A stretch of DNA of 40,810 nt, from the UHGV virus genome UHGV-0096231; one strand, 5' to 3'. Of the stretch, positions 8,742 to 40,810 are shown piece after piece. A program made the position numbers and the translations under genes. The notes under the pieces are model-generated. The model saw only the letters and a program-made list of their open reading frames with translations. It did not search any database and was not told where the DNA came from. Numbering within the stretch: position 1 is the stretch's first letter; each line of letters opens with the position of its first letter. Source of the stretch: a virus.

Positions 8742-8912
8742 ATGTTTGTCAAACCTGTTAAAGGGCGGTCAGTGCCTGACCCTGCCCGCGGCGACCTTTT
8801 GCCCGCCGAAGGGCGAAATGTTGACGAGAACAACTACTGGCTGCGCCGTGAAGCAGCGGGTGATATCCGGCGCGTGAATAAAAAGGTGAACACCGATGAC
8901 GATAAGCTTTAA
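8742..8912 (+). CDS. small hypothetical protein overlapping the sheath start
   Basis: 56-codon ORF (MFVKPVKGRSVPDPARGDLL...), not in the ORF track because it is under 60 aa. Overlaps the sheath start by 17 nt. Confidence 0.3.
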   Translation: MFVKPVKGRSVPDPARGDLLPAEGRNVDENNYWLRREAAGDIRRVNKKVNTDDDKL

Positions 8913-11068: not shown

Positions 11069-11160
11069 ACCCCCTTGAACTTCGCCGGACGGCTATTTCC
11101 CACTTTGCTGATCTGGAGGCAGAGGCCGTCCGTATAAATGAGGAGATGAAGCATGGCTGA
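10745..11160 (+). CDS. tail assembly chaperone, predicted -1 frameshift extended isoform
   Basis: The -1 frame from the heptamer at 10996-11002 is open for 54 codons and ends at a TGA at 11158-11160, overlapping the tape-measure start. This is the classic G/GT-type arrangement. Confidence 0.5.
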
Positions 11161-20639: not shown

Positions 20640-21509
<870 letters not shown>

Positions 21510-21583
21510 CTAAGCCTTTGAATTTACATAGTACAAAAAAGATACTTTTCCTCATAATGTGAGCTAATTTTATGTTTCGTTTG

Positions 21584-21627
21584 ATGATTGGACCGGTCTC
21601 GAAAACCGTAGGCACGTAGTATGCGTT
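21584..21627. repeat. hairpin repeat, copy B (partial)
   Basis: atgattgg ... gaaaaccgtaggcacgtagtatgc. Shares the atgattgg leader with copy C and the core with copies A and C. Lies in the divergent intergenic region between the GIY-YIG gene and the methyltransferase gene. Confidence 0.5.
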
Positions 21628-21774
21628 AATTTATGAACAAACTACTTGTCTGCTGTTTTTCTGTCATTAGTCGTATATAGAATGATTCTCTATGCCTAAC
21701 AAAGCATCACCAGTGCTAGATTACGTTGCAGTCACTGTTTAAATATCCAGATAAAACATTTCCTTCTGGGTTGA

Positions 21775-23250: not shown

Positions 23251-23284
23251 GAACACCTCCCGGCCTTTTAAGCCGGGAGTCAGC

Positions 23285-25257: not shown

Positions 25258-26238
25258 ATGAAATTTAAGGACAAGAACCTTAAGGCTCTCGCGGAATGTA
25301 TCATAGGAGATAATAAGGCATTTCTGTATCGTTCAAGCAGTCACATCACTGAATTTTTCCAGGACTGCGGCATGGATGTTACTCATGACGGATCCACTCG
25401 GTGGAAATGGACGGCCCAGAGGCTTGAAGAACTTCTTTATGAGCCACAGTCAAAGCCACATACTTTGCCGGAAAGGTTTGTTCATGTGCTCAGAACTTTA
25501 ATGTTAAAAGAAGATGCAATGGATGACGATCCAGGAAGATTAAAGGCGCTTGAAGAACTGAACAAGCCTTTGATGCGGGAAGGCTATGAGGCATTCTATG
25601 GTGACGATCGCCTTTTGTATATACGCCATACCGATACCAAAACGGTTTCAGTCAGTAATAACCCTCATCGGCCCTTAACGCCTCACGAAGTAGAATGCAG
25701 AAGGTTACTGACCGCGTTTCTTGATACCTGCTCAGAAGATGAGTTAATAGAAGATATTCTCCTTCCTTTATTCCGGCAACTTGGTTTTCACCGGATAACA
25801 GCAGTGGGACATAAAGATAAAGCGCTGGAATACGGGAAAGACATCTGGATGAAGTTCACACTGCCAACTCAGCATGTTCTTTATTTCGGCATTCAGGCAA
25901 AAAAAGGTAAGTTGGATGCGTCCGGTGCCAGCAAATCTACGAATTCAAACGTGGCAGAAATCTTCAACCAGGTACTGATGATGCTTGGCCATGAAATATT
26001 TGACCCAGAAACAAATAGAAAGGTGCTGGTAGATCATGCCTTTATCGTTGCTGGCGGAGAAATTACTAAACAGGCGAGGAACTGGCTGGGCGGGAAACTT
26101 GATGCCAGCAAAAGAAGCCAGATAATATTTATGGACCGGGAAGACATTCTTAATTTATATACTGTAAGTAATGTACCTCTGCCAACAGGTGCTCTCATCT
26201 CTGATGATGCCGTTAAGAACGATGATATTCCTTTCTAA
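25258..26238 (+). CDS. hypothetical protein with PD-(D/E)xK-like nuclease motif (candidate defence gene)
   Basis: 326 aa, AT-rich, GGAG RBS. The segment ELIEDILLPLFRQLGFHRITAVGHKDKALEYGKDIWMKF...HVLYFGIQAKKGK fits an E...D...(Q)xK restriction-endonuclease-fold pattern. Function not established. Confidence 0.5.
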   Translation: MKFKDKNLKALAECIIGDNKAFLYRSSSHITEFFQDCGMDVTHDGSTRWKWTAQRLEELLYEPQSKPHTLPERFVHVLRTLMLKEDAMDDDPGRLKALEELNKPLMREGYEAFYGDDRLLYIRHTDTKTVSVSNNPHRPLTPHEVECRRLLTAFLDTCSEDELIEDILLPLFRQLGFHRITAVGHKDKALEYGKDIWMKFTLPTQHVLYFGIQAKKGKLDASGASKSTNSNVAEIFNQVLMMLGHEIFDPETNRKVLVDHAFIVAGGEITKQARNWLGGKLDASKRSQIIFMDREDILNLYTVSNVPLPTGALISDDAVKNDDIPF

Positions 26239-26733: not shown

Positions 26734-26779
26734 ATTCGTAATGCGAAGGTCGTAGGTTCGACTCCTATTATCGGCACCA
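26734..26779 (+). other. att core: 46 bp identical to the 3' end of tRNA-Thr(CGU) (thrW), not an intact tRNA
   Basis: ATTCGTAATGCGAAGGTCGTAGGTTCGACTCCTATTATCGGCACCA matches thrW from the anticodon loop (CGT) through the T-arm and acceptor 3' end. The 5' half of the tRNA is absent, so this is a duplicated attachment-site core. Confidence 0.8.
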
Positions 26780-26944: not shown

Positions 26945-28159
26945 GTGAAACTCAATGCCCGTCAAATAGACACAGCCAAGCCAAAAGAGAAGGCTTACAA
27001 GCTGGCCGATGGTGGCGGTTTGTATCTCTTGGTAAAACCTAATGGAGGTAAATACTGGCGACTTAAATATCGTGTAGCTGGTAAAGAGAAGCTATTGGCA
27101 CTAGGTGTGTATCCTGAGGTTACTCTAGCCGATGCTCGGGCAAAACGTGAAGATGCGAAAAGAGGTATCGCTGGTGGTATCGATCCGATGGAAGCGAAAC
27201 GAGAGGAAAAGATTGCCCGGGAAACGCAGTTAAACAACACCTTCAAAGATATTGCCCTTGAGTGGCACAGCAGCAAATTAAAAAAATGGTCTGCTGGTTA
27301 TGCTTCAGACATCCTCGAAGCCTTCAACAAAGATGTGTTCCCTTACATTGGCAAAAAACCAATCGCCGAAATCAAACCACTTGAACTTCTGAATGTGCTG
27401 CGGCGCATCGAGGGGCGCGGTGCTACAGAAAAAGCCAAAAAAGTGAGGCAGCGGTGCGGGGAAGTTTTCCGCTATGCAATAGTCACTGGTCGCGCAGAGT
27501 ATAACCCTGCACCAGACCTTACTAGCGCGATGCAAGGCCATGAATCTAATCATTACCCTTTCCTTACAGCTAAAGAATTACCTGATTTTTTCAAGGCATT
27601 GTCCAGTTACTCAGGAAGCGCATTGGTTGTTATGGCGGCTCGTCTACTGATTATCACCGGCTTGCGGACTGGCGAACTACGTGGCGCATTATGGGATGAA
27701 ATTGATTTCAACAAGGCTATCTGGGAGATACCCGCTTCACGTATGAAAATGCGGCGGCCTCATATTGTGCCATTGTCTGATCAGGCTCTTTCGCTTATTG
27801 GGAAGATTAGAGAAATAACAGGCAATTACCCTCTTATGTTTCCCGGGCGCAATGATCCAAGGAAAACAATGAGTGAGGCCAGCATAAACCAAGTGTTTAA
27901 GCGCATTGGCTACGCTGGACGTGTAACTGGTCATGGGTTCCGGCACACTATGAGCACGATTTTGCATGAGCAGGGCTATAACACCGCGTGGATAGAAACG
28001 CAGCTCGCTCACGTTGATAAGAACTCAATTCGTGGCACATACAACCATGCGCAATATCTGGATGGAAGGCGGGAGATGCTTCAATGGTATGCCGACTATA
28101 TGGATTCTCTCGAGCATGGCGGAAATGTGGTGCATATGGTGTTTGAAAAACACGCATGA
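26945..28159 (+). CDS. tyrosine integrase (P4 family)
   Basis: 404 aa. N-terminus KLNARQIDTAKPKEKAYKLADGGGLYLLVKPNGGKYWRLKYR is the typical P4-type integrase arm-binding domain. C-terminal catalytic region with HGFRHT...Y. GTG start. Immediately downstream of the tRNA-derived att core. Confidence 0.9.
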   Translation: MKLNARQIDTAKPKEKAYKLADGGGLYLLVKPNGGKYWRLKYRVAGKEKLLALGVYPEVTLADARAKREDAKRGIAGGIDPMEAKREEKIARETQLNNTFKDIALEWHSSKLKKWSAGYASDILEAFNKDVFPYIGKKPIAEIKPLELLNVLRRIEGRGATEKAKKVRQRCGEVFRYAIVTGRAEYNPAPDLTSAMQGHESNHYPFLTAKELPDFFKALSSYSGSALVVMAARLLIITGLRTGELRGALWDEIDFNKAIWEIPASRMKMRRPHIVPLSDQALSLIGKIREITGNYPLMFPGRNDPRKTMSEASINQVFKRIGYAGRVTGHGFRHTMSTILHEQGYNTAWIETQLAHVDKNSIRGTYNHAQYLDGRREMLQWYADYMDSLEHGGNVVHMVFEKHA

Positions 28160-28429
28160 AACAACTGGACAAGTATACAGAGGTTTACTAAAGTATAGGG
28201 GAGTAGATTGATAAAAACTCACAGAGGATTGCTATTTAACAGTTAGCCCTGGAGAAGGGCAATCGCTCTTTTATAAACGAAGGTGTATTGAGCCTTCTAC
28301 GTCGCTGACAAAGCGGAATGTTCTTTAAAACTACTGGATGTCACGCCTAATAGCGTGATCCTGCCGAAATGCAGGGTAGCTCTACCCTTGTGGAGCAAAC
28401 AAACCAAAACAATCTGACTATCTTTTATA

Positions 28430-28464
28430 AAAGACCGCAATATGTTTTTCATATTGTGGTCTTT
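28430..28464. promoter_or_regulatory. 15-bp-stem hairpin / palindrome upstream of alpA
   Basis: aaagaccgcaatatg-ttttt-catattgtggtcttt, one mismatch in the stem. Candidate operator or terminator. Confidence 0.35.
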
Positions 28465-28550
28465 GGCGTATTCGACATTTGACGCAAATAAAACTCTCGC
28501 CATTCGTTGCAGGAGGGGGTTATTGCGTCATTAGTACAGGATATTAATAA

Positions 28551-28754
28551 ATGGCTAATTACAATTCATTAATTCGTCTCTCTGAAGTTCAAAGGCGAAC
28601 TGGTTATAGCAAAGCATGGATTTATCGTCTTATTAGTCAGGGGAGGTTCCCTAAACAGGTAAAAATTGGAAGTCGGGCAATTGCTTTTGTTGAGTCTGAA
28701 ATAGATGAATGGATTGAGAAGTGTATATTAGAATCTAGAGACGAGGTGGCCTGA
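28551..28754 (+). CDS. AlpA-family transcriptional regulator / excisionase
   Basis: 67 aa. LIRLSEVQRRTGYSKAWIYRLISQGRFPKQVKIGSRAIAFVESEIDEWI is the canonical AlpA helix-turn-helix pattern. Confidence 0.8.
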   Translation: MANYNSLIRLSEVQRRTGYSKAWIYRLISQGRFPKQVKIGSRAIAFVESEIDEWIEKCILESRDEVA

Positions 28755-29185
28755 TGGAAAAGAAAAACCGCCCATTACAGGCGGCTAATTCAGATATTCG
28801 TGTATCTGATGTTACGCCCCTTACAAAATCCCTTCAAGCACCAAAGCGCACACCGAAAAAGCATCGTGCCAGAGTCTATATGCTGCGTACTGGTATAGAG
28901 GGATGGACAGAAAATGACATTCTTCGCTACTGCCGTCTGTCTTCTGGTCGTAACTATGCAACAGAGTTAGAACGCCAGCTTGGAATCACTCTGGAGCGTA
29001 TCGACGAAAAGAATCCTGATGGTATCGGAACACACCTTCGCTACCGTTTCTCCTGCCGTGGTGATGTTCTGAAAGTGATCACTCATATTAACCATCTTGC
29101 GAACATAAATGATCACAACGGACTTTCTCAGCAGGAAATTGCCGACATTCTGAAACTCTACCCGGACGCGTTTAACGCCGCCTAA
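28754..29185 (+). CDS. hypothetical protein
   Basis: 143 aa, ATGA-coupled to alpA. Confidence 0.5.
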   Translation: MEKKNRPLQAANSDIRVSDVTPLTKSLQAPKRTPKKHRARVYMLRTGIEGWTENDILRYCRLSSGRNYATELERQLGITLERIDEKNPDGIGTHLRYRFSCRGDVLKVITHINHLANINDHNGLSQQEIADILKLYPDAFNAA

Positions 29186-29197
29186 CGGAGACTGAAA

Positions 29198-30031
29198 ATG
29201 AACATCGAAAAAAGCAGATTAATTTCTGAGGCTGCCCCTCATCTGAACGCCTCTCTGGGCACAATTAACGGTAATGAATTTGCCGCAATTGTCCCGGTTA
29301 TTCCTGGTCATATCGGTGGGCGTGAAACCAATATTGTTAGCGCAAAAGCGTTACACAAAGCGTTGGGCGTGGGAAAAGACTTCTCTACATGGATCACTGA
29401 TCGCATCTCTGAATATGACTTCACCATTGGGCACGATTACTCAGTCCATAAAACAATTTCCCCAAATTTGGGGAAAAGCCCGAATGGCGCGGCTTACAGC
29501 AAGATTAAGCAGTCTGGCAGACCCGGCAAAGACTATCTGTTAAGTGTCGGAATGGCGAAAGAACTGGCAATGATCGAACGCAATGATCAGGGTCGCGCTA
29601 TCCGTCGTTATTTCATCCAGTGCGAGGAAGAATTACAGCGTAGCGTGCCTGAAATCGCCGCCCGCTATCGTCGCCAGCTAAAAGCCCGTATTAGTGCCGC
29701 AAACAACTTTAAGCCAATGTGCGATGCGCTGAATATGGCCCGTGCCGAGCAGGGGAAAACGACGCAGCAACACCACTACACAAACGAGAGCAATATGATT
29801 TCTCGTATCGTTCTTGGTGGGCTAACTGCTAAGCAGTGGGCGCGGATAAATGGCTATTCTGGCGAACCTCGCGACCATATGAACGCAGAACAGCTTGAGC
29901 ACCTCTCATATCTCGAAAGCACCAATATCACGTTAATTGATATGGGCATGGAATATGAGCAGCGCAAAGGAGAACTCACCCGCCTGTCGCAACGCTGGCT
30001 CGCCAAGCGTCTGGAGGCGGTCCATGTTTAA
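29198..30031 (+). CDS. phage antirepressor-like protein (AntA / KilAC-type)
   Basis: 277 aa. The segment KDFSTWITDRI ... DYLLSVGMAKELAMIERNDQGRAIRRYFIQCEEEL resembles Ant-type antirepressor domains. Assignment from memory of the motif. Confidence 0.5.
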   Translation: MNIEKSRLISEAAPHLNASLGTINGNEFAAIVPVIPGHIGGRETNIVSAKALHKALGVGKDFSTWITDRISEYDFTIGHDYSVHKTISPNLGKSPNGAAYSKIKQSGRPGKDYLLSVGMAKELAMIERNDQGRAIRRYFIQCEEELQRSVPEIAARYRRQLKARISAANNFKPMCDALNMARAEQGKTTQQHHYTNESNMISRIVLGGLTAKQWARINGYSGEPRDHMNAEQLEHLSYLESTNITLIDMGMEYEQRKGELTRLSQRWLAKRLEAVHV

Positions 30032-30206
30032 GCCGACAGGAACACCACAACCTCAAAAACGCTACAAAGATGCCCACGGAGCACTCGTTACTGTCGAAAG
30101 CGTGTCTCACAACCGAGTGACGTTTTATCGCGACGGGTATCAATCGCCATGCGTACAACCGCTGGCACGTTTCATGAAGGAGTTCGCGGAGGTTAACAAA
30201 TGCTAA
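30027..30206 (+). CDS. small hypothetical protein
   Basis: 59 aa starting at an ATG that overlaps the ant stop (ATGTTTAA). Translational coupling suggests it is a real gene. Confidence 0.35.
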   Translation, partial: FKPTGTPQPQKRYKDAHGALVTVESVSHNRVTFYRDGYQSPCVQPLARFMKEFAEVNKC

Positions 30207-31267
30207 CCGCCCAGAAGAAGATATTTTCACTGGCTGGTATGTCGCCAAAATCCAGCAATATGACAGCAAAGTCAGACATTAATACAGCAGATACAAGCAA
30301 AGTTTATCATTTGCTGGTGGTCGGAACGGATGCCTTAACCATACCAGAAATCTCGGGCGATGATATTAGCATTGAGAAGGTCAGCGGCTGCGCCAGAAAA
30401 TTTCTGGTCGTAGATGATGTCTTCAGCTCGTGTAGTGACTCCACAAAAACATTCGTCCACGCGCGTGACGTTAACGAAATGAGCGCGATGTACTGTGCTT
30501 CTGGTTCTTCCAATAGTGAGTTTTCGGAGTCCATAAAAAAGAGCTTGCCGTTATGCGGCAACACGGTTTATGGTTATAAGGCACCTCATAAAACGGGTGC
30601 CGGGATTGGCGTCCTGGTAAATCGAATGGCGACATATGACGCGCCGAGCGTCTTTTTTTATGTCGTAGGTCTGACTCACCCATTTTTTGGGCGTTGGTGT
30701 ATAATCCAGCGCCTTTGTCAATCAATGGTGGCTCAGGCAGGGGCTTCTTCGGAAGCGCCGGTATCCATTCGAGCCGGTTACGCCAACCCTGTCTGGGCTA
30801 CCACCAGCGAAATTGGCGTTTCCGGTGGTAGCGTTACATGCTATCGAATGGAGGCTGCCACATGCTGGCTACTACCCCTACCCAAAAACCGCAATTTATC
30901 TGGATTATCGCCGCAGTTCGCCGCGATTGCCCGACAATTACCGCCAAAATTCATCATATTGCTGCCGAGTCTGAACGCGATGCTCGCCGTTCTCTGGTGC
31001 GCGATCACATCTGCTTTTTTGCTGGTCGTATCCGCATGGAGGTGGCACATGATTAAAACCTACGATGTGCATATGGATCCCCTCGAACGCACAAGCCAGA
31101 TCATCACACTGACAGAAGTGATTAACGATATTCTGGTGAGCAACTCTCCCTCACGAGACGAAAAACTGAAGGCGTTACTCGCGATATTGGACCTCGCCGT
31201 TCGTGACGTTCATTTCCTGCTGGAAGGTGGACAAATGCCATGCAAAACGGGGGCAACCAATGAATAA
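30200..31267 (+). CDS. hypothetical protein; ORF boundary anomalous (the in-frame read-through to 31267 is probably not one gene)
   Basis: The start is coupled to the upstream stop (ATGCTAA). The frame has no stop until 31267, yet the region 30862-31056 shows better codon usage in another frame. Possible frameshift or fusion. Confidence 0.3.
30862..31056 (+). CDS. small hypothetical protein
   Basis: 64 aa from the ATG at 30862 with GGAGG RBS. Codon usage (ctg, ccg, cgc, atc, acc) is more host-like than the overlapping frame. Confidence 0.45.
   Translation: MLATTPTQKPQFIWIIAAVRRDCPTITAKIHHIAAESERDARRSLVRDHICFFAGRIRMEVAHD
31049..31267 (+). CDS. small hypothetical protein
   Basis: 72 aa. ATG overlaps the previous stop (ATGATTAA). 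Confidence 0.4.
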   Translation: MIKTYDVHMDPLERTSQIITLTEVINDILVSNSPSRDEKLKALLAILDLAVRDVHFLLEGGQMPCKTGATNE

Positions 31268-31454
31268 CTCAATTAATACCCCTCGCCTTACGTCCGCACT
31301 TCAATTAATCGAGCAAGCAGCGGCTGTCCCGGTTGCTGTCAGTCTTTCGGCTGAAGAAATGGACGCTGCTGATGTCGTGGATGCGATTAAAGCGTGCTCA
31401 TCTTTGGTTAACGATGCCCGTGCCGAGCTGGTAATTCTTGGGGGTGAAAAATGA
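31260..31454 (+). CDS. small hypothetical protein
   Basis: 64 aa. ATG overlaps the previous stop (ATGAATAA). Confidence 0.4.
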   Translation: MNNSINTPRLTSALQLIEQAAAVPVAVSLSAEEMDAADVVDAIKACSSLVNDARAELVILGGEK

Positions 31455-31714
31455 ATATCACCTTAATTTATCGTCATCCGTGTGAGCTGGAAATTGAATC
31501 ATTGCTGGGGCGCGAAGAGCCATATCCAGACACATTCACTCCCGCAGATTGCGCGACTGAACGGCTTACCAGAGCGCGCACAGGTCTGGTTCATGTGATG
31601 AATGAGATTGTTCCCTCGGTGGGAGGGGAACAGGCGACAGTAATCAATAGCTGGCTACAAAAAGTTACCTCCCTGATAGATATCGGTTTAATCGATGTGG
31701 AGAGTGCGAAATGA
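31451..31714 (+). CDS. small hypothetical protein
   Basis: 87 aa, ATGA-coupled. Confidence 0.4.
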   Translation: MNITLIYRHPCELEIESLLGREEPYPDTFTPADCATERLTRARTGLVHVMNEIVPSVGGEQATVINSWLQKVTSLIDIGLIDVESAK

Positions 31715-31932
31715 CCAACATCCAGCTCATTGAAGCGCAATGTCGCATCGAACAGGTTCAGACTGTTTTAGGGTTCTGGCTTGAAGGGGCCAGCCCCTGC
31801 AACAGAGACAAGTTAATGATTGGCGCGGTTATGTCACTGCTCAATGGCGTACCAGAAGCTATTCAGGAAGCGGACGAATTGTTGGGCAAATATGAGTTAC
31901 AGAATCATTCAGGCGAGGCGAAACATGAATAA
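31711..31932 (+). CDS. small hypothetical protein
   Basis: 73 aa, ATGA-coupled. Confidence 0.4.
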   Translation: MTNIQLIEAQCRIEQVQTVLGFWLEGASPCNRDKLMIGAVMSLLNGVPEAIQEADELLGKYELQNHSGEAKHE

Positions 31933-32527
31933 TTTCTTAACTTTCCATGCAGAAGCAACGCCTGACGGCGTAAACATCATGTACCGCAGCAACGATGGCA
32001 TGACAGAACGCGTTGATACCGTCTCATATATTGATGCCGTAAATCGTCTGGATGCCGGGGATTATGACGATAAACCAGATGAAGGCATGTTTATACATCT
32101 CGCTATTGCCAGTGGCGGCAACCAGGGATATTTCGATTACACATCACAGCATCACGTGATTATGTGGCGCTGGCTGATAGCAACAGCATTCATCAATGAA
32201 ATGAGAAAGGAAAACGGCACCGTCAGCATTATTGATGACAGTGGCAATCATTCCGTGGTTTCTGTTTATTCCAATGGCATCGTCGCCATGCCGCTGTATC
32301 CAGTAGCAGAGCGCCTCGCTATGGCAAACAACATTGAGGGCGCAATGATCGAGAAATATGGTGTTGATGTCGGAACAAAGAATGCCATCATTTTTTACAG
32401 CAACATGTTCGATGTCGAACAGGGAACACTCACTTCGTTTGGGCGAGAAGTGCTTGCCGATCTTCACAACAGCTTTATTGCCGAACTAAACGAAAACGGC
32501 ATCCCAGAAGCACCAGTGACGCACTAA
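31925..32527 (+). CDS. hypothetical protein
   Basis: About 200 aa from the ATG at 31925, which overlaps the previous stop. Directly precedes the primase gene. Confidence 0.5.
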   Translation: MNNFLTFHAEATPDGVNIMYRSNDGMTERVDTVSYIDAVNRLDAGDYDDKPDEGMFIHLAIASGGNQGYFDYTSQHHVIMWRWLIATAFINEMRKENGTVSIIDDSGNHSVVSVYSNGIVAMPLYPVAERLAMANNIEGAMIEKYGVDVGTKNAIIFYSNMFDVEQGTLTSFGREVLADLHNSFIAELNENGIPEAPVTH

Positions 32528-32539
32528 ACGGGGGCCAGA

Positions 32540-34891
32540 ATGCGAAACATTGATCTTATCCGTCAGGTTATCAGTGCGTCTGAAAACAACTGGCCTCATG
32601 TGCTGGGCTGCCTGAACATAAATGTCCCTGACTCTCCGCGCCGTCATGCTCCCTGCCCTGCATGTGGGGGCAAAGATCGATTCCGGTTCGATGACAACGG
32701 GCGCGGTAGCTTCATCTGTAATCAGTGCGGCGCTGGTGATGGGCTGGATTTAATTAAACGCGTAAATAACTGCGACACAACAGAGGCGGCGCTTCTTGCC
32801 GCTGATGTTCTGGGTATTGATTACCGGACAACGGAAACACCAGAAGCCACCAGCCAGAAACGGGAACAACTGGAAACCGAGCGCCAGCGACGCGAACAGG
32901 AGCGCCTGAAAAGGGCAGAGAAGGACGAACAACAAAGACGGGATACGTTTTCCCGTCAGTTTGATGACATGCGCAGAAAGGCTGTAAACGGCAAATCTGA
33001 TTATCTGGTTGCGAAAGGGGTAGGTGATTTTACATTCCCCGTGTTGCCCGATGGATCTCTGTTGCTGGCGCTGGTGGATAAATCCGGCGCAGTCACAGCA
33101 GCACAGACTATTACCTCACATGGTGAAAAAAGACTCCTGACAGGTTCGGCAAAGCGGGGGGCATATCACGCCATAAACGCACAGAAACGACCTCACAGCA
33201 TCATAATTGCTGAGGGGGTGGCTACCGCCCTGTCGTGCCATTTAATTCGCCCTGACGCAATGACAGTGGCAGCAATCGACGCTGGCAACCTGTTGCCAGT
33301 AGCGGAAGTCATGCGCAGAACATATCCGCAGGCACAAATAATCATTGCCGCAGATAACGATCACCAGCAAGGAGACTCAGAAAGTGGAGGGATCAACACG
33401 GGGAAAGATGCCGCAGAGAGGGCCGCTATTTCCGTAGCTGGCAGGGTGTCTCTGCCACCGACTGACTATAAAGCCGACTGGAACGACTATCACCAACAAC
33501 ACGGGCTGGCGGCAGCCACAGCAGCATTTAAAGATTCGATGTACCAGCCACGGGGGAAAGGGGCGCAGGTGAAAAATCACAAACAGTCAGTCGGGGCGCT
33601 GAATGAGATCAGTTCTGGCGAGGTGTTAAGCGATGATGAAATTGCTGTCCTCGAAGAAATCAACCGGACGTTTACGCATGTCACCATCGGCGGGAAACAC
33701 AAGGTGGTGTCGCTAAAGCCTTCTCAAACCGGCGGTGTATCGCACGTTTTCGAGGATTTATCACAATTTCAGCATTATTTTCATCATAAACCGAGAGTCG
33801 CCAGAAAGCTGGCGGGATCGGCGTGGCTGTCATGGAGTGGGAAGAACTACAAGCCAGGAGGCGTAGGATTTTATCCAGTACCAGACAAATGCCCTGACGA
33901 TGTTTTTAATCTGTATGAGGGGCTGGCACTGGAACCAATTGAAGGAGATTGCACGGTATACCTTAATCACCTGTTGCAGGTTGTCTGTGCCGGTAATGAA
34001 GAGGCATACCAATATCTTATCCAGTGGATGGCGCACATTATCCAAAAGCCTGATGAAAAACCGTCCGTGGCAATCGTGATGAAATCTGTCCCGGGCACAG
34101 GGAAAGGCACAACGGTTAAACCGCTGCTGCAAATACTGGGGCAGTACGCCGCCCACATTAACGGGGCGGGACATATTTCAGGGCGCTTCAATTCAATACT
34201 TGCTAACAAGCTACTGGTATTTGCTGACGAAGTGACGATCCACAAGCCGTCTGAAGCTGACAGACTTAAAGCGATTATTAGCGAACCGACGTTTAACCTT
34301 GAGCGCAAGGGAATTGATGCTGAACCAATGCCGAATTTTGCCCGGTTGATATTTGCCAGTAACAGCACACAGGTATTACAGGCAGGGATAAGAGAGCGTC
34401 GCTATCTCGTGCTTGAGCCATCTCCTGAAAAAGCACAGAGCCGGGAGTATTTTGATCGGCTGTACAGTTGGCTTAATGATGGCGGTGCCGCAAAGTTGCT
34501 TTGGCATCTTAAAGGGGTGGATCTCTCAGGTTTTGACCCTCAACGAGCGCCACAGACCGATGCCTTACGTGAAGAAATCTTGCTGGGGCTGTCTGGCGTT
34601 GAATTGTTTCTTTATGGCGAGCTAATCAATGAACCTCCGTTTAATGGCGAAGTCCGTTTGTTTGCAAAGGATATGGTTAGTCGGTTTGTAGCGTGGTCGC
34701 TTGAGCGTGGGGAAAAGCTTAAAGAACCAGCTGCCAGATCACTACTGGGTAAATCACTTGCACAAATGGGGCTGGTGAAGCATGGAAGACCAGACCGAGG
34801 GAATGGCGTGTTCTACGAACTACCAGAGGTCGGAGTTCTACAGGCTGCGTTTGCCCGTCTGATCGGTATGGGGGGTTATGATGTTTTTTAA
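32540..34891 (+). CDS. P4 alpha-like primase-helicase (zinc-binding / toprim primase + D5-type helicase)
   Basis: 783 aa. N-terminal Cys cluster CPACGGKDRFRF...FICNQCGAGDG (zinc-binding primase domain), a toprim-like middle region (IIIAEGVATALS, AADND), and a C-terminal P-loop-like VPGTGKGTT. Confidence 0.85.
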   Translation: MRNIDLIRQVISASENNWPHVLGCLNINVPDSPRRHAPCPACGGKDRFRFDDNGRGSFICNQCGAGDGLDLIKRVNNCDTTEAALLAADVLGIDYRTTETPEATSQKREQLETERQRREQERLKRAEKDEQQRRDTFSRQFDDMRRKAVNGKSDYLVAKGVGDFTFPVLPDGSLLLALVDKSGAVTAAQTITSHGEKRLLTGSAKRGAYHAINAQKRPHSIIIAEGVATALSCHLIRPDAMTVAAIDAGNLLPVAEVMRRTYPQAQIIIAADNDHQQGDSESGGINTGKDAAERAAISVAGRVSLPPTDYKADWNDYHQQHGLAAATAAFKDSMYQPRGKGAQVKNHKQSVGALNEISSGEVLSDDEIAVLEEINRTFTHVTIGGKHKVVSLKPSQTGGVSHVFEDLSQFQHYFHHKPRVARKLAGSAWLSWSGKNYKPGGVGFYPVPDKCPDDVFNLYEGLALEPIEGDCTVYLNHLLQVVCAGNEEAYQYLIQWMAHIIQKPDEKPSVAIVMKSVPGTGKGTTVKPLLQILGQYAAHINGAGHISGRFNSILANKLLVFADEVTIHKPSEADRLKAIISEPTFNLERKGIDAEPMPNFARLIFASNSTQVLQAGIRERRYLVLEPSPEKAQSREYFDRLYSWLNDGGAAKLLWHLKGVDLSGFDPQRAPQTDALREEILLGLSGVELFLYGELINEPPFNGEVRLFAKDMVSRFVAWSLERGEKLKEPAARSLLGKSLAQMGLVKHGRPDRGNGVFYELPEVGVLQAAFARLIGMGGYDVF

Positions 34892-34920
34892 TATAGTCTT
34901 TTTACAAGAAGATCGTTTTT

Positions 34921-35026
34921 ACCTGTACCACCTATACCACTTTGCTAATTCAGCATTAAAAACAATGTGTTATAGTGGTACAGGTCAATATCTTACCTAT
35001 ACCAGACCTGTACCACCTATACCATT
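34921..35026. repeat. iteron cluster 1 (ACCTGTACC / GGTACAGGT family)
   Basis: cctgtaccacctatacca occurs twice as a direct repeat (34922-34939 and 35007-35024), with an inverted copy tggtacaggtc between. Immediately downstream of the primase gene. Confidence 0.6.
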
Positions 35027-35067
35027 AACAAACGCATTTCTTCTGGCTGGCTGAGAGGGAACAACCA

Positions 35068-35298
35068 ATGATGAGCGCACCATTTTACAAAGTGCGCCAG
35101 TTAGCTTCTTCCTCTGGCTGGCAGCTACGGTTTGAGGGGCGTTCAGACTGGCTACCCATTGCGGCATGGGCGAATGTTGAAATGTGTATTGACGGCGATA
35201 CCGTTGAAATCATTATTCCCTGCGTGGCAAGTCGGGACGGCTGTATAGAGCCAACAGATATGGCAGCAGAAATCAGAGAGGTAAAACATGAGCAATAA
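35068..35298 (+). CDS. hypothetical protein
   Basis: 76-aa ORF between the two iteron clusters. Confidence 0.4.
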   Translation: MMSAPFYKVRQLASSSGWQLRFEGRSDWLPIAAWANVEMCIDGDTVEIIIPCVASRDGCIEPTDMAAEIREVKHEQ

Positions 35299-36025
35299 CT
35301 ATTGCATACCGCAGGGAATGACCAGAACGGAGCGCGAAGAATTAAAAAGTTTCGCTACACAGTGCGGGAATGCTGGCGACATCCAAAGTCTGGAACGCAC
35401 TTTAATTATGATTGCGCACTGGATGCGTCAGGGGCAAAGGGTTTCATTTACTGAATATGCCAGCCAGTGGACAGAGGCACAGCGCGAACGGAGCGACGGT
35501 AATCACTCAACACCCGAAATGGCGAAGCAATGGCCTTTCAGTGGTAAACGCTGTATCAGTCCCGGTGGTTCAGATTATTACCCTGCTGGTGTGGGAGATG
35601 AGCCATGTTGTGACGAGACTGAAATCCGCCACGCAGTGACAGTAATTACCGCTGAATACCCACAATTTAACCTTGACGGACTGGCGCTCCACAACCGGAA
35701 TGCGGACTGGGAAAACCCGCTTGATAACCCGTCATTTATCGTATCGGCGAAAAGCTGCCTGAGATGGATCAGAGACAACGGGATGAGTAATGCCCAGATT
35801 GAGAGCTTCCCGCAGGATAACCCCACATCTGACACGTTGAAGCATGAAGTGGAGCGATATAACCAGATAAACCACCAGCACAGTGATCACCCGCACTATA
35901 TCCCCAACGGAGCATTTATTGCGGCGATGGTGGCAAGCGGCTACAAGGTTAAGCCAGCGGGAAGAATGAACGCATTTTTCAATATTTCAAAAAAGGGATT
36001 ATGTGCTGCTATGGGTAAAAATTAA
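35288..36025 (+). CDS. hypothetical protein
   Basis: 245-aa ORF overlapping the previous gene. Confidence 0.5.
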   Translation: MSNNYCIPQGMTRTEREELKSFATQCGNAGDIQSLERTLIMIAHWMRQGQRVSFTEYASQWTEAQRERSDGNHSTPEMAKQWPFSGKRCISPGGSDYYPAGVGDEPCCDETEIRHAVTVITAEYPQFNLDGLALHNRNADWENPLDNPSFIVSAKSCLRWIRDNGMSNAQIESFPQDNPTSDTLKHEVERYNQINHQHSDHPHYIPNGAFIAAMVASGYKVKPAGRMNAFFNISKKGLCAAMGKN

Positions 36026-36030
36026 ATAAA

Positions 36031-36134
36031 TGGTACAGGTCTGTACAGGTGGGGAGAGGTCATTTTTACCCACCTGTACCACCTGCAGGCCGCGTCACAC
36101 AAGGGTTTGTGACATGGTGGTACAGGTGGTACAG
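36031..36134. repeat. iteron cluster 2 (GGTACAGGT family) with central palindrome
   Basis: tggtacaggtctgtacaggtgg, cacctgtaccacctg and tggtggtacaggtggtacag are copies of the same motif as cluster 1. A gtcacac...tgtgac palindrome lies at 36094-36113. Confidence 0.6.
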
Positions 36135-36499
36135 CAAAAACAGCGATTTTCTTTATAAGGTATGTTTTGCTCATCTGGCAGACGGAGGTATTCGCTGCGG
36201 TTTGGCACATAGCCCAGAACAGCAAAGAGTTTTACGAGACTTTTGTAAAATCCAGTGTACAAGGGCGTGACGTTTTTGAAGGAGAGACCTACGAAATTTT
36301 CGTAGTTCAAAAAATAGCCTCTGAGATGTTGTTATGCCTGTTCAGCAAACCATCCGCATAGCTGATCGCGAATCAAATTACCAATGGAGCCAGAAGCAAG
36401 GGCAGAACTGGAAAGCGCCTGCCGTGAAGAGTAATGCGACATCGTAAATATAGTTTTTAGAGTCCATAAAAAACCTGTCAAAACCTGACATACAGAACG

Positions 36500-36533
36500 A
36501 TGCCACCAGCTACTGAGCGGTGGCATTTTTTTG
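36500..36533 (+). terminator. Rho-independent terminator
   Basis: atgccacc-agctactgagc-ggtggcat followed by TTTTTTT. Confidence 0.6.
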
Positions 36534-36627
36534 TGCTATTTGTTTCATATTTTGCAATCACAATGATGAATATTGCGTTTTATGAAACTATAATGACTGT
36601 TGTTTTATACAGTTCTAAGGGGGCGTT

Positions 36628-36786
36628 ATGGCTATTTCAGTAAAGCCGGTATTGATAAGTGAGAAGCAAATGGAAGCGATAAAGAAAATTCAGGAGGAGC
36701 AGCGTAAAAAATCAGAGGTAGGAGTTGCGCCAACGATCCACGAAATTGCTCGGGGATTAATGGATAAGGCGCTGGCTTACACTTTA
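36628..36786 (+). CDS. small hypothetical protein (52 aa), first gene of the unknown operon
   Basis: ATG with AAGGGGG RBS. Encodes MAISVKPVLISEKQMEAIKKIQEEQRKKSEVGVAPTIHEIARGLMDKALAYL. Not in the ORF track because it is under 60 aa. Possibly a small DNA-binding or regulatory protein. Confidence 0.35.
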
Positions 36787-36793
36787 ACTGGAC

Positions 36794-38155
36794 GTGGGTA
36801 AATCAATGGCTACGTGGAAACAGGGTATTAATTCTGGTGGTTTTCTGGCTGGCATTGGTGCGCAAAATGAGAATGCGCCAAAGGCAAGCGACATTAACGC
36901 AACGCTTGGTCTGATCCGCGAAAACAATGAACTGGCTCGATCAGGTGCAAATAACGTTGCTCTGACAGGCCTTCGTGGTCTGGCTGGAGTTGCTGACATT
37001 TATAAGCAGGAACAGCAACAGAAAGCGATTAGTGCGTTCAATAAGGTTCATGCTGATGCATGGGCTTCTGGTGATCCATCGGGACTATTTAAGTTTGCCC
37101 AGGAAAATCCAGCGTTTGTTGCACAGGCACAACAGGCATTTTCCGGTCTTAATGAGCAGCAACGCAACGATATGGGCGATTTAGCCATGAGGGCTAACGT
37201 CGCTCTTTCTCAGGGACCGGAAGCCTACAGTAAATTCATTACTGACAACAAGGACAGGTTAAATCGCGTTGGTGCTAATGCTGACTGGATGATTCAGACA
37301 GGTATCCAGAATCCAGAGCAGCTATCACACATGCTGACTACTATGTCTCTCGGTGCGCTTGGACCAGAAAAGGCGTTTGCTGTTCAGGATAAGATGGTTG
37401 GTCGCCAGCAGGAGCAGCAAAGAATTAACGAAACCATTCGCAATAATGACATGACGAATGCGAGGGCTATTAGGGGTCAGGATCTTTCCTATAAGGCTCA
37501 AATGGCAAGACTGAATCACGACAAGTATGTGTTTAAGCAGTCACAGGCGGCCCTTGAAAGAGCAGGACAACTTCAGGATATGGATGTTTTGTCTCTTAAC
37601 TCACAGATAGCAGCGACGGGAATTGATCCGCTAACCGGTAAAGCTGCAACGTCAGCCAGAATGTCTCAGGCTAAGAGATGGCTTGATGGCAACAATAATT
37701 ACAACAATGCGTTAATTACTGGTGAGCGAGGGATAGAGAAAATTGATTCTTTGCTTGGTAAGAAGGAGCTTGAAGGTATTGGTCGCTTCGAAGGAAGAAA
37801 TATAGATGGCTTCACAAGTGCTGAAGGGCTTGCAAACCGTAATGCGATAGAAGAATTAAAGTCGGGTGCGTTTGTCCAGAACGTGCAGACTATGCGAGGT
37901 ATGGGTAGCCTCTCCAATGCTGAAGGCCAAAAACTGGAAAACCTGATCGCGAAACTCGATATAACACAGCCTGAAGAGGTCGTCAGAAAACAGTTATCTG
38001 AAATCCGATCGCAATATTCTGTATTTCAAAAGGTTGCAGCAAGGGAGGCTGAATCAATGGGATATAGTTCATCAGGTTATGACACATATGTTAGTGAGCG
38101 AAAATCAGGAAGCGACAGCAATAAGTCCGGTTTCTCGTCTTTATGGGGTGATTAA
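36794..38155 (+). CDS. hypothetical protein (453 aa), Gln/Ala/Asn-rich, predicted coiled-coil
   Basis: Long ORF with no recognisable catalytic motif. The start may be the GTG at the track coordinate or the ATG four codons later. The stop overlaps the next start (TAATG). Confidence 0.6.
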
Positions 38156-40260
38156 TGGCTAAAGCATGGAAAGATGTTATCGCTTCTCCACAGTATCAGG
38201 CGTTAGCACTAGAACAAAAAGCGCAGGCTCAGGAGCAATACTTCAATGAAGTCGTGGCCCCGCAAGCCGGAGAAAGTGTAGAGCAGGCTAAGCAGGCTTT
38301 TTATGCTGCCTATCCACTACCATCAACGAATGAAATAGACCGATCCCAATCAGCAACTCAAAATATTCAACATACATCATCTGATAATTCTCTTGCGTCA
38401 GGGTATGCAAAGTTAGCTACTCAGCAAAGAGAGGGGCTTGAGCGTTCAGCAGAACAGGGAGCCAGTCTTGGGGCTGCGATGCGCGATGCTATAACAGGCG
38501 AAAGCCGAATGACTCCAGAGATGGAGAGACTGCAAAATGTCGCCTCTGCCCCAGAATTGAACTCACTAAGCATGGATGCCCTAAAGGCTGGATGGTCTCA
38601 ACTTTTCGGCTCTGACGCGTCTCAGGAAAAGATTCTTCAGGGAATGGGGGCGACATTAAGGCAGGATGAGAAGGGGAATACTATCGTTTCTCTGCCATCA
38701 GGTGATTATGCCCTAAACAAGCCGGGTTTATCACCGCAAGACCTGACTTCGTTTCTTGCTAATGCGTTGGCGTTTACACCAGCGGGCAGGGCTGGAACGG
38801 TGCTTGGTGCCATAGGAAAATCAGCAGCTACAGATTTAGCACTACAGGGAGCCACCAGCCTTGCTGGTGGAGAAGATATTGATCCGTTACAAACGGTAAT
38901 TTCTGCTGGCATTGGTGGTATTGGTAAGGGGCTGGAAAATACAGCGAGTGCGGTTTCGAGGGCTGTTCGTGGTGATATGTCGCCTGAAGCAAAGGCTGCT
39001 GTCGACTTTGCATCGGAAAGAAATCTGCCGTTAATGACCAGTGACATGCTGAAAGATAAAACCTTTATGCAGAGTCAGGCTCAGACATTAGGCGAAAGAG
39101 TTCCTTTTTTTGGAACCGGTAAGAACCGACTGAATCAACAACAAGCACGAGAAAATTTAGTCAGAACATTTAGCGATGGTCTGGGGGGAATTTCAGATAA
39201 ACAGCTTTATGAATCTGCGACTAAAGGGCAGCAAAAATTCATTGAGGCAGCAGGAAAGCGATATAACCGCATAATTGACGCTATGGGGGATACCCCTGTC
39301 GATCTCTCAAACACGGTAAAAGCTATCGACAATCAGATTGCCGTGTTAAGCCGACCGGGCAAATCTCAGGATAGAGCCGCGGTAAAAGTCTTGCAGCAAT
39401 TTAAAGACGATATCACCAGCGGACCCAATGACCTGCGTCTGGCGAGAGAAAACAGAACTGACCTTCGAAAGCGGTTCATGAATTCAAACGAGACTGTTGA
39501 TAAAGACACGCTCCAGAAAGCCAGCGATATTGTCTACAAGGCATATACAGCGGATATGAAAAAAGCAGTATCCCAAAAACTAGGCTCAGAAGAAGCTACC
39601 AATATGTCTAGGGTTGATCGCTCATGGGCTAGATTCAATGACATGATGGGAAGAACGCGCGTTCAAAAGGCAATAGCCAGCGGCAAGGCCACGCCTGAGG
39701 ATGTAACAAAACTCGTTTTTAGCCAAAACCCATCAGAACGTTCTCAGCTTTACAGGCTTCTGGATGACAATGGTAGGCAAAACGCACGAGCCGCCATAGT
39801 TCAGAATGCTGTAGATAAGGCGACTGATCCGTCTGGAAATATCAGTGTTGAGAAGTTTATTAATGCGTTACACCGGAACAGAAAGCAATCCGCAACGTTC
39901 TTTAAGGGCGTGCACGGAAAGGAACTGGACGGCATTATTAAATACCTCAACGATACCAGACAGGCGGCAAAGGTTGACGGTCAGAAATTAAACAGCCAGA
40001 AACTTTATGGCCTGCTGGTTGGTGGAGGCGCTATAAATGCGGCAGTTCTGGCGGGGATGCTGAAAACGGCTGCGTTTGTTGTTCCTGCTGCAGGTGCCGT
40101 AGGCGGAGCAGCGAAGGCATACGAAAGCCCTGTTATACGAAATGCCTTGTTACGTCTGGCAAATACGCCAAAAGGTAGCACAGCATATGACAGAGCGATC
40201 AGTACGGTCACACAATCACTGACCACAGCAGCACAAGCATCGCAAAAGGAAGCTCAATAA
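38155..40260 (+). CDS. hypothetical protein (701 aa) with C-terminal hydrophobic helical hairpin
   Basis: Long, largely helical Q/A-rich protein. The C-terminal LYGLLVGGGAINAAVLAGMLKTAAFVVPAAGAVGGAAKAY (about nt 40003-40125) is a glycine-zipper-like membrane hairpin. No P-loop or nuclease motif seen. Confidence 0.6.
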   Translation: MAKAWKDVIASPQYQALALEQKAQAQEQYFNEVVAPQAGESVEQAKQAFYAAYPLPSTNEIDRSQSATQNIQHTSSDNSLASGYAKLATQQREGLERSAEQGASLGAAMRDAITGESRMTPEMERLQNVASAPELNSLSMDALKAGWSQLFGSDASQEKILQGMGATLRQDEKGNTIVSLPSGDYALNKPGLSPQDLTSFLANALAFTPAGRAGTVLGAIGKSAATDLALQGATSLAGGEDIDPLQTVISAGIGGIGKGLENTASAVSRAVRGDMSPEAKAAVDFASERNLPLMTSDMLKDKTFMQSQAQTLGERVPFFGTGKNRLNQQQARENLVRTFSDGLGGISDKQLYESATKGQQKFIEAAGKRYNRIIDAMGDTPVDLSNTVKAIDNQIAVLSRPGKSQDRAAVKVLQQFKDDITSGPNDLRLARENRTDLRKRFMNSNETVDKDTLQKASDIVYKAYTADMKKAVSQKLGSEEATNMSRVDRSWARFNDMMGRTRVQKAIASGKATPEDVTKLVFSQNPSERSQLYRLLDDNGRQNARAAIVQNAVDKATDPSGNISVEKFINALHRNRKQSATFFKGVHGKELDGIIKYLNDTRQAAKVDGQKLNSQKLYGLLVGGGAINAAVLAGMLKTAAFVVPAAGAVGGAAKAYESPVIRNALLRLANTPKGSTAYDRAISTVTQSLTTAAQASQKEAQ

Positions 40261-40322
40261 CAGATGGCCATGGATGGTTGGTTATAATAGTAATTAGTAT
40301 TTTTTTCAAATAGTTATGAACA

Positions 40323-40730
40323 TTAACACTTGCCTTTAACATTGCCGACAAATGAGCCTGTAAATGAGCCTATATCAGATCGACTAATTGTTCGTGTATG
40401 GATCACTTTTCCGTCATTTGAGATTGCCCATGTGACAAGCGTCAGTTGACCATCTCGATAGCTTCTTCCCATCATGGCATTCGGAGATAGCGGGTAATAA
40501 TCAATACCTCCACCTATACCATCTTTTGCCAAGATAAGATCCGCCTTCTCTTTACTTATTACCAAATGAAAGGTATCTGGTATAGATGATAACTTATAGT
40601 TATACCCATCTGAACTTGAGGCTTCTTGTCCTTTCAGATCACCAATAATCCAGCATTCAGCGTTCGCTCCAAAAGAAGCAAATAATAAACCGGAGACAAC
40701 CAATCGCTTCAATTGATTCACACCAACCCT
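40323..40730 (-). CDS. secreted (signal-peptide) hypothetical protein, convergent with the 701-aa gene
   Basis: Start placed at a GTG with AGGGAGGG RBS, giving MNQLKRLVVSGLLFASFGANA-E..., a typical Sec signal peptide with an ANA cleavage motif. About 135 aa. The ORF track gives a longer version, 40323..40790. Confidence 0.5.
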   Translation of the reverse strand, partial: RVGVNQLKRLVVSGLLFASFGANAECWIIGDLKGQEASSSDGYNYKLSSIPDTFHLVISKEKADLILAKDGIGGGIDYYPLSPNAMMGRSYRDGQLTLVTWAISNDGKVIHTRTISRSDIGSFTGSFVGNVKGKC

Positions 40731-40810
40731 CCCTTTAGCGTTGTTTAGAATGGCAATCATCATATATCCAAGACATGGCATTTGGTACATAGCTTGGGTC
40801 GGGATTTCAA

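Follow-up and report, generated by a model that had tools for sequence, protein, structure and literature searches.

Why would a phage satellite carry proteins of the conduit through which a podovirus delivers its DNA? The question is raised by positions 36500 to 40730 of UHGV virus genome UHGV-0096231, a stretch of 40,810 nt that we refer to throughout as the window. An earlier note, made from the sequence alone, described here a terminator, an operon of three tightly coupled genes, and a convergent gene for a secreted protein; it could match the operon proteins to no family and proposed a membrane-acting effector of abortive infection or exclusion, naming virion or ejection-type proteins borrowed from a podovirus as the alternative. 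The alternative proved to be correct. Homology and context show that the two large genes encode the P22-type ejection proteins gp20 and gp16 and that they occupy the place of the virion module in a phage-inducible chromosomal island (PICI) of the EcCIMP1 type, whose helpers are P22-like podoviruses of E. coli. The two genes, and the segment of the second that had suggested a membrane effector, are located as follows.

36806 to 38155, plus strand: gp20-type ejection protein, periplasmic tube of the DNA conduit (PF16928, phrog_2534)
38155 to 40260, plus strand: gp16-type ejection protein, inner-membrane part of the conduit (phrog_770)
40003 to 40122, plus strand: C-terminal Gly/Ala-rich hydrophobic segment of gp16, followed by a YES..RNALLRLANTPKGSTAY motif

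Profile searches found clear homology to ejection proteins for both large proteins, a result that the earlier note had said would speak against its own proposal; the proteins, which it could match to no family, do belong to known ones. The first protein (449 amino acids [aa]) matched the Pfam family PF16928, Inj_translocase, described there as "DNA/protein translocase of phage P22 injectosome," over residues 16 to 232 with 362.9 bits against a cutoff of 29.7 (E = 8e-109), and it matched PHROG 2534 with an E value of 1e-175. It is 98.7% identical to gp20 of phage HK620; its N-terminal 232 aa are 85% identical to P22 gp20, and its C-terminal part is mosaic. The second protein (701 aa) has no meaningful match to a Pfam family, but over its full length (residues 20 to 700) it matched PHROG 770, "DNA transfer protein," with an E value of 2e-159. 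With gp16 of phage N7 it shares 68% identity, with Sf6 gp13 and ST64T gp16 about 33%, and, in a BLASTP alignment of 482 aa, with P22 gp16 30% (E = 3e-52). In no phage record does identity to this gp16 allele exceed 68% across most of the protein, and sequence searches of the PDB with gp20 and gp16 returned no matches. The order of the two genes is that of genes 20 and 16 in HK620, Sf6, and P22, as is their one-base overlap at position 38155. The composition rich in Q, A, and N that had been remarked on was confirmed by measurement (A, 11.8%, Q, 8.0%, and N, 7.8% in gp20; A, 13.8%, Q, 7.3%, and N, 5.0% in gp16).

The hydrophobic C-terminal stretch of the 701-aa protein is also present as described, at residues about 617 to 656 (LYGLLVGGGAINAAVLAGMLKTAAFVVPAAGAVGGAA). 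The Gly/Ala-rich stretch and the YES..RNALLRLANTPKGSTAY motif recur in gp16 of N7, Sf6, ST64T, P22, and Emek, and a comparable hydrophobic stretch is found in gp16 of HK620 and Kapi1; the supposed glycine-zipper hairpin is therefore, as judged from these alignments, a conserved feature of the gp16 family. In comparison with N7, this region is the second least conserved 50-residue block of gp16 (36% identity). Membrane association and DNA transfer activity of gp16 are attributed to Perez et al., as cited in PMC10883804.

The layout of the operon agreed with the earlier description, except for two gene lengths. Three tightly coupled genes in one orientation lie 3' of an intrinsic terminator and are followed by a convergent open reading frame (ORF) at 40323 to 40790 on the minus strand.

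36499 to 36532, plus strand: intrinsic terminator insulating the operon from the replication module (dG, -17.9 kcal/mol; z, -4.36)

The terminator, borne out here, consists of a stem at 36499 to 36527 and seven U residues (z of -4.4 against shuffled sequences), and a hairpin with a T run is found in the same place, with different sequences, in relatives from Leclercia, Serratia, and Erwinia. The first gene had been given as a 52-aa ORF; a small ORF does exist, but it encodes 57 aa (36628 to 36801), and the identical protein is WP_001018522.1 in RefSeq relatives. Similarly, the gene for the "453-aa protein" is real, but rather than at GTG 36794 (453 aa), it most likely starts at ATG 36806 (449 aa), since RefSeq calls the start in relatives in this way and HK620 gp20 has the same length.

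The window is E. coli DNA, and the island to which this operon belongs could be traced from its left end.

26763 to 26772, plus strand: att core TCCTATTATC, 173 bp upstream of int and marking the left end of the PICI (one exact copy in the window)
26945 to 28159, plus strand: tyrosine integrase of the PICI (Pfam Arm-DNA-bind_3, Phage_int_M, and Phage_integrase; 99.5% aa identity to EcCIMP1)
28551 to 28754, plus strand: AlpA-family regulator (100% aa identity to EcCIMP1 AlpA over 67 aa)
32540 to 34891, plus strand: primase/helicase (zinc ribbon, Toprim, and DUF5906 by Pfam)
36031 to 36134, no strand assigned: iteron-like repeats GGTACAGGTGG, direct and inverted, putative replication origin between a 245-aa ORF and the operon

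The experimentally characterized PICI EcCIMP1, from E. coli MP1, is an island of 19,963 bp at tRNA-Thr between proA and yagU, and its excision, circularization, and transduction require the P22-like podovirus Kapi1 (PMC11773190, Pick, Stadel and Raivio, ISME J 2025). The att core in the window is the one reported for EcCIMP1 (PMC11773190). From this core as far as the N-terminal third of the primase, by way of the integrase, AlpA (the master activator of the PICI in EcCIMP1; PMC11773190), AntA, Ash/Icd, and the small ORFs, the order is that of EcCIMP1, and the proteins are 85 to 100% identical to its own. The integrase, AlpA, and primase genes thus stand in order, and the island contains no capsid, terminase, or lysis genes; complete relatives are alike in this respect. 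No tRNA was found in the window, where another prophage lies upstream, and the right end of the island is beyond the window, which therefore holds the left att copy only.

The two islands part company in three places. The N-terminal 351 aa of the primase are 85% identical to those of EcCIMP1, whereas the C-terminal domain has been swapped (DUF5906 in the window and DUF927 in EcCIMP1). Behind the counterpart of the lead ORF (53 aa, 87% identical to the 57-aa ORF), EcCIMP1 also has P22-type ejection genes, but these are gp14 (DUF2824), gp7, gp20, and a 906-aa gp16 with a transglycosylase (SLT) domain, whereas the window has only gp20 and gp16, and the alleles are unrelated (27% identity for gp20). 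Finally, the slot after gp16 holds a lipoprotein gene in EcCIMP1 and a gene for a protein resembling phage 434 Hex in the window. In the published description, the ejection-type genes of EcCIMP1 are called only "similar to DNA transfer proteins," and a role in packaging was proposed (PMC11773190). The proteins are known, then, and the PICI family was published in 2025; the member in the window is new in its two-gene cassette, its swapped primase domain, and its Hex-like slot gene.

The earlier note had assigned the element to the P4 family. It is probably a helper-dependent satellite, but of the type of EcCIMP1 and the PICIs: no sid, psu, or delta was recognizable by Pfam and PHROG among the ORFs from 26945 to 40810 or in the RefSeq annotation of complete relatives, a survey that did not include a dedicated profile search, and since none was recognized, the element is not strictly P4-like. 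P4-like satellites have in common with it an integrase, an AlpA-type regulator, a member of the Ash family, a primase resembling P4 alpha (with zinc ribbon and Toprim domains), iterons, and defense cargo near one end; they differ in using a P2-like myovirus as the helper, whereas the known helper of the EcCIMP1 family is a P22-like podovirus. A parallel in layout is offered by capsid-forming PICIs and by operon I of the Staphylococcus aureus pathogenicity islands (SaPIs), in which part of a virion program is likewise encoded in an operon downstream of the replication module. However, those operons encode capsid, packaging, or size-redirection functions, whereas the family described here carries DNA delivery parts. 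SaPI operon I is reportedly repressed by LexA; in the window, a motif suggests the possibility of such control.

Several further observations concern the front half of the island. Both versions of the primase C-terminal helicase, DUF5906 and DUF927, are found in otherwise near-identical satellites. An Icd-like ORF (30862 to 31053; 98% identical to that of EcCIMP1) is nested in another frame within a 355-aa Ash-family ORF (30200 to 31267), and in some relatives, ash is annotated as a pseudogene and icd is called separately. The 245-aa ORF between the primase and the origin (35288 to 36025) has no Pfam match and a weak PHROG match (E = 7e-4); relatives retain it (WP_000070012.1). A shared back half, comprising the lead gene, the ejection proteins, and PerC, occurs in satellites behind two different integrases at two chromosomal sites, yicC-dinD in one genome (L023) and thrW in three others (L001, L002, and L004); because the same back half is combined with different integrases, this indicates that the integration module is exchanged modularly between satellites.

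We turn now to what stands in front of the ejection genes, since the lead gene and its upstream region are the parts that satellites from different genera have in common.

36628 to 36801, plus strand: 57-aa lead gene, conserved satellite-specific protein (87% identical to the 53-aa ORF of EcCIMP1)
36542 to 36588, no strand assigned: 17-bp inverted repeat GTTTCATATTTTGCAAT / ATTGCGTTTTATGAAAC (arms 36542 to 36558 and 36572 to 36588), putative operator abutting the -10 element
36589 to 36594, plus strand: -10 hexamer TATAAT, perfect, with no good -35 element (invariant in 9 of 9 aligned loci)
36597 to 36612, no strand assigned: CTGT-N8-ACAG, LexA-box-like palindrome just downstream of the -10 element (sole copy in the window, 0.53 expected by chance)

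Conservation upstream of the lead gene extends over about 90 bp and covers six genera: Escherichia, Leclercia, Serratia, Raoultella, Klebsiella, and Erwinia. The operator blocks TTTCAT, TGCAAT, and ATTGCA/ATTTCA are kept across these six genera, and a Shine-Dalgarno sequence is among the conserved elements; a scan for consensus promoters had missed the TATAAT hexamer because of the poor -35 element. Further copies of the 17-bp operator arm amount to chance-level matches in the window outside the promoter, with none in the PICI. The CTGT-N8-ACAG palindrome is kept in the Escherichia locus and in one Leclercia locus and is degenerate elsewhere; the motif is real, but with 0.53 copies expected by chance in the window, it is not significant by itself. 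The lead protein itself belongs to a family of 45 clusters, all from Enterobacterales. We considered and rejected the idea that it is a remnant of gp7, as a tblastn search of 50,697 phage records gave no match. A ribbon-helix-helix regulator is at most a tentative idea: the AlphaFold2 (AF2) model, two helices with an extended N terminus (pLDDT of 74), has a compatible topology, but Foldseek (best match, a ParD ribbon-helix-helix domain with an E value of 7.5), a PDB profile search, and Pfam (16 members) gave no support.

What follows the lead gene in other satellites bears directly on the function of the operon. A scan of viral contigs in IMG/VR yielded 48 loci, and in all 48, a virion part for DNA delivery or envelope penetration follows the lead gene.

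15 loci (5 of them with gp20 and gp16 only): P22-type ejection proteins after the lead gene
10 loci: T7-gp14-like, SLT, or internal virion proteins after the lead gene
15 loci: tape measure protein, with or without Dit and a baseplate hub, after the lead gene
8 loci: baseplate hub first after the lead gene

Genes for capsid, large terminase, or tailspike proteins were found in this position in none of the 48 loci. Leclercia adecarboxylata has gp14, gp7, gp20, and gp16; a Serratia satellite has gp20 and an SLT-containing gp16, so that the two-gene layout of the window recurs there with a different type of gp16; Leclercia sp. EMC7 has a T7-gp14-like protein with SLT and internal virion proteins; an Erwinia satellite has a tape measure protein of 1,049 aa; and a Klebsiella satellite has one of 671 aa with a transglycosylase domain, together with a Dit-like protein. 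Gene 14 (DUF2824), which phage annotation describes only as a virion assembly factor, is present in many cassettes. Because a delivery part always follows the lead gene and gene 14 is frequent, the pattern favors a dedicated virion-part module over a decoy or a chance arrangement, and it points away from the published suggestion of a packaging role. Our literature search found no account of a conserved promoter and lead gene followed by delivery modules, or of the pairing of such modules with an exclusion slot, and among reports on satellites with ejection or tape measure proteins, it found only the EcCIMP1 paper to be relevant; the transcriptome paper on MP1 yielded nothing usable on these genes.

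The gene that follows gp16 supplies the second half of the pattern.

40323 to 40721, minus strand: Hex-like secreted beta-barrel protein in the sieA slot (longest ORF to 40790)

The convergent secreted protein predicted earlier is real. Its start is most likely GTG 40721, behind a strong Shine-Dalgarno sequence, GGGAGGG, which would give a protein of 132 aa with a canonical signal peptide (MNQLKRLVVSGLLFASFGANA/EC). It is a member of phrog_2651 (E = 1e-22) and shares with phage 434 Hex 30% identity, 19 invariant columns, an AECW motif, and a terminal Cys; the ORF in the corresponding place of Emek, a P22-like phage, is 34% identical, and gene 38 of Sf6 is a further relative. Hex is reported to exclude P22, and its name, for heterologous exclusion, records this (Susskind and Botstein 1980, cited in PMC3564112). 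We also considered an inhibitor of lysozyme or transglycosylase and rejected it.

In P22, the exclusion gene sieA lies immediately after gene 16 and convergent to it, and Emek has the homologue of the window protein in the same place. The window thus resembles the sieA/immI slot of P22 in having a convergent envelope-protein gene directly after gene 16, but the gene is a different one: SieA is a four-helix membrane protein, whereas the window protein is a soluble periplasmic beta-barrel, with a signal peptide and without the four-helix inner-membrane architecture or the RYPGEA motif. Sibling satellites, however, do have a SieA-like gene in this slot. Their 204-aa four-helix protein carries the motif NRYPGEAR, matches P22 SieA by BLASTP (3e-8; phrog_7745), and is 33% identical to the sieA-slot protein of the HS1 prophage; it is encoded in strains 2016C-3878 (L023, 21098 to 21712) and F5656C1 (L028, 11018 to 11632) behind a leader region identical to that of the window. 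Other siblings have another four-helix protein, a lipoprotein, or a membrane-anchored coiled coil. Because sibling satellites place SieA-like and other envelope proteins there, the slot after gp16 is, by its predicted contents, one that behaves as an exclusion-gene slot, as in P22-like phages. The Hex-like protein is accordingly a candidate exclusion factor against P22-like phages acting from the resident island, so that the exclusion function proposed earlier is plausible for the convergent gene but not for the 701-aa protein. The literature places sieA homologues only in P22-like prophages; some of them may actually lie in satellites.

What, then, might the satellite gain from its own gp20 and gp16? 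A 2026 preprint (bioRxiv 10.64898/2026.09.03.749273) reports a trans-envelope channel that is built sequentially from gp7, gp20, and gp16 on the gp10 hub. We consider it rather probable that capsids made by the helper take up gp20 and gp16 of the satellite and that these proteins, docked on gp7 and gp10 of the helper, become the periplasmic and inner-membrane parts of the conduit for satellite DNA. Induction of a P22-like helper would switch the operon on; satellite gp20 and gp16 would enter helper-built procapsids with satellite DNA; in the next cell, the ejected proteins would dock on helper gp7 and gp10 via the conserved N-terminal domain of gp20; and there they would build the conduit that takes the satellite DNA across the envelope. 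In P22 virions, the native ejection proteins can be exchanged for very divergent ones, and genes 16 and 20 rank with the most variable genes of the virion (PMC10883804). The same work located mutations that escape SieA in the C-terminal regions of gp16 and gp20 and not in gp7 (Leavitt et al. 2024, PMC10883804), and in siphoviruses, changes in the tape measure protein overcome exclusion proteins of an analogous kind (PMC10883804). The window carries exactly the two SieA-relevant proteins, gp20 and gp16, and retains the gp20 N-terminal domain that is conserved across alleles. In a similar vein, EcCIMP1 and its helper Kapi1 are only 26% identical in gp20 and 24% in gp16, compared with 83% in gp14 and 57% in gp7.

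Since the C-terminal regions of gp20 and gp16 set SieA-type sensitivity in P22, alleles of its own might admit satellite particles to cells that exclude the helper, be they helper lysogens or cells that hold the satellite's own exclusion-slot gene. That escape from conduit-targeted exclusion in recipients is the purpose of the cassette, with the Hex-like protein as the exclusion factor of the resident island, is a possibility that we regard as doubtful. More generally, the combination of one promoter and lead gene, a delivery part always behind them and matched to different virion types, and exclusion genes in the neighboring slot suggests a role for the satellite in the contest of ejection proteins with superinfection exclusion. 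We propose tentatively, and with somewhat less than even confidence, that enterobacterial PICIs include a family with a swappable genome delivery module behind one promoter and the 57-aa gene, paired with an exclusion slot, in which the conduit is rebuilt for entry into helper-excluding cells while the resident island excludes the helper type. If this is true, rebuilding the DNA conduit in helper-made particles would be a general and undescribed satellite strategy, and the element concerned is a common one, present in about 9% of complete E. coli genomes.

Several observations weigh against these proposals. The rate at which Kapi1 transduces EcCIMP1 is low, and those who described the island were unable to define a packaging mechanism (PMC11773190). 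The window variant lacks gp14 and gp7, and the window contains no P22-like helper. G532 and P546 of P22 gp16, where changes allow escape from SieA (PMC10883804), correspond in the alignment to S614 and K637 of the window protein, at the border and in the interior of the hydrophobic stretch, but the equivalent of G532 is Ser in three copies, the window included, and Gly in another satellite copy; there is thus no consistent resistance signature, and we make no claim of one. On the regulatory side, the LexA-like box at 36597 to 36612 is not significant alone, and the ribbon-helix-helix idea for the lead protein has no statistical support. Homology of the slot protein to Hex is just about 30%, and the published role of Hex, protection of the repressor from RecA, is cytoplasmic and fits ill with a signal peptide. 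Finally, EcCIMP1 raises superinfection immunity against Kapi1 in lysogens (PMC11773190), and the gene responsible could in principle be an ejection-protein gene.

This last point leads to the alternative that survives best, though we judge it improbable: gp20 and gp16 made by a resident island could jam the conduit when a P22-like phage comes in, or they could poison the progeny of the helper, and the operon would then be a defense system built from domesticated ejection proteins. EcCIMP1 does add to superinfection immunity against Kapi1 without a defense system recognizable by PADLOC and DefenseFinder (PMC11773190); the operon has its own promoter, gp16 is described as membrane associated (as cited in PMC10883804), and the adjoining slot holds exclusion-type genes. 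However, gp20 has no signal peptide, so that protein made in the cytoplasm could not reach the periplasmic site of the conduit, many cassettes include the assembly factor gp14, and the full-length tape measure, Dit, and baseplate hub proteins that occupy the position in other genera are not easily seen as decoys. In addition, Kapi1 titers on induction are not reduced by EcCIMP1 (PMC11773190), and PADLOC gave no matches.

The unchanged Kapi1 titers bear equally on a second alternative, in which satellite alleles are coassembled into all particles and render helper virions less infectious. Satellites commonly interfere with helper morphogenesis, and satellite and helper alleles are very divergent here; Tai systems, moreover, are encoded downstream of pri in PICIs (PMC11364771). 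Yet satellite DNA shares the same particles, so that a dead conduit would block the satellite too, and divergent ejection proteins work in P22. We therefore give anti-helper interference still less weight than the decoy.

A third alternative is that the cassette is an inert leftover, useless to the satellite, from recombination of an island with a P22-like prophage. The gp20 DNA is 96.7% identical to that of HK620, the mosaic boundaries at 36796 and 38261 are sharp, and gp7 and gp14 are missing from the window variant, all of which speaks for such an event. The distribution and conservation of the cassette make this very unlikely. Among 5,426 complete E. coli genomes, the leader and small ORF were found in 500, a direct junction of the small ORF to gp20, as in the window, in 217, and the window-type gp16 allele in 418, full length and in a single piece in 398. 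Between satellite copies, the ratio of nonsynonymous to synonymous substitution rates (dN/dS) was 0.06 to 0.17 for gp16 and 0.07 to 0.09 for gp20, the comparison with HK620 included; part of this signal of purifying selection, and of the synonymous divergence, may predate the move from a phage ancestor into satellites, which counts against our reading of it. In the eight complete E. coli genomes whose context was inspected, the gp16 allele lay in a satellite every time (at thrW or yicC-dinD, with different integrases) and never in a P22-like prophage, and the 701-codon ORF was intact in all eight; in Escherichia sp. L007, the allele also lies in a satellite, and the contig ends after 412 codons. 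Low dN/dS values, intact ORFs, and occurrence in hundreds of genomes thus indicate that the cassette is not a dead remnant. The promoter and lead gene are kept across six genera with delivery modules always next to them, and the two-gene layout recurs in Serratia.

P22-like phages (HK620, CUS-3, N7, Sf6, and P22) share with the window the sequence, gene order, translational coupling, gp20 N-terminal domain, and gp16 C-terminal motif, but in them genes 20 and 16 lie in the late operon behind genes 14 and 7, whereas in the window they lie behind a satellite-specific promoter and the 57-aa gene; the window gp16 allele, moreover, was found only in satellites (the eight complete E. coli contexts and the partial one of L007) and not in P22-like phages. 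Two apparent gp16 pseudogenes among the eight genomes (L029, 8894 to 10999, and L078, 5894 to 7999), labeled by PGAP "incomplete, missing C-terminus," proved to be annotation artifacts with all 701 codons intact; such calls would inflate pseudogene counts.

The proposal of the earlier note, that the 701-aa hairpin protein is a new membrane-acting abortive infection effector with accessories and no virion role, draws on its hydrophobic C-terminal segment and on the proximity of the operon to the variable cargo of the island, but it is hardly tenable given that the protein is homologous to gp16 over its full length, that the segment is a trait of the gp16 family, and that defense libraries give no match. 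Scans of the five proteins with PADLOC (PADLOC-DB 2.0) and NCBIfam, a defense prediction that the note had itself suggested, gave no meaningful defense match, the sole PADLOC match being a chance-level one of the 57-aa protein to Cas11a (E = 0.017). As to the variable position for defense cargo, recognized cargo (Abi and RnlAB) starts in relatives just past the exclusion slot, outside the window.

The remainder of the window is taken up by other elements. Positions 1 to 20500 are the late region of a myovirus-type prophage, with a P27-type small terminase, an HK97-type portal, protease, capsid, tail sheath (8896 to 10392), tape measure (11153 to 13060), and baseplate and tail fiber genes, as in strain CRE1493, where pinE is next; as it is unrelated to P22-like phages, this prophage is not the expected helper of the satellite. 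A 326-aa ORF without a Pfam match (25258 to 26238) precedes the island, and before it, between prophage and satellite, lies a cargo block (20640 to 24499) that encodes a LEM-3-like GIY-YIG nuclease (20640 to 21464, minus strand), a C5 cytosine methylase (21775 to 23250), and an EcoRII-type restriction endonuclease (23285 to 24499, minus strand).

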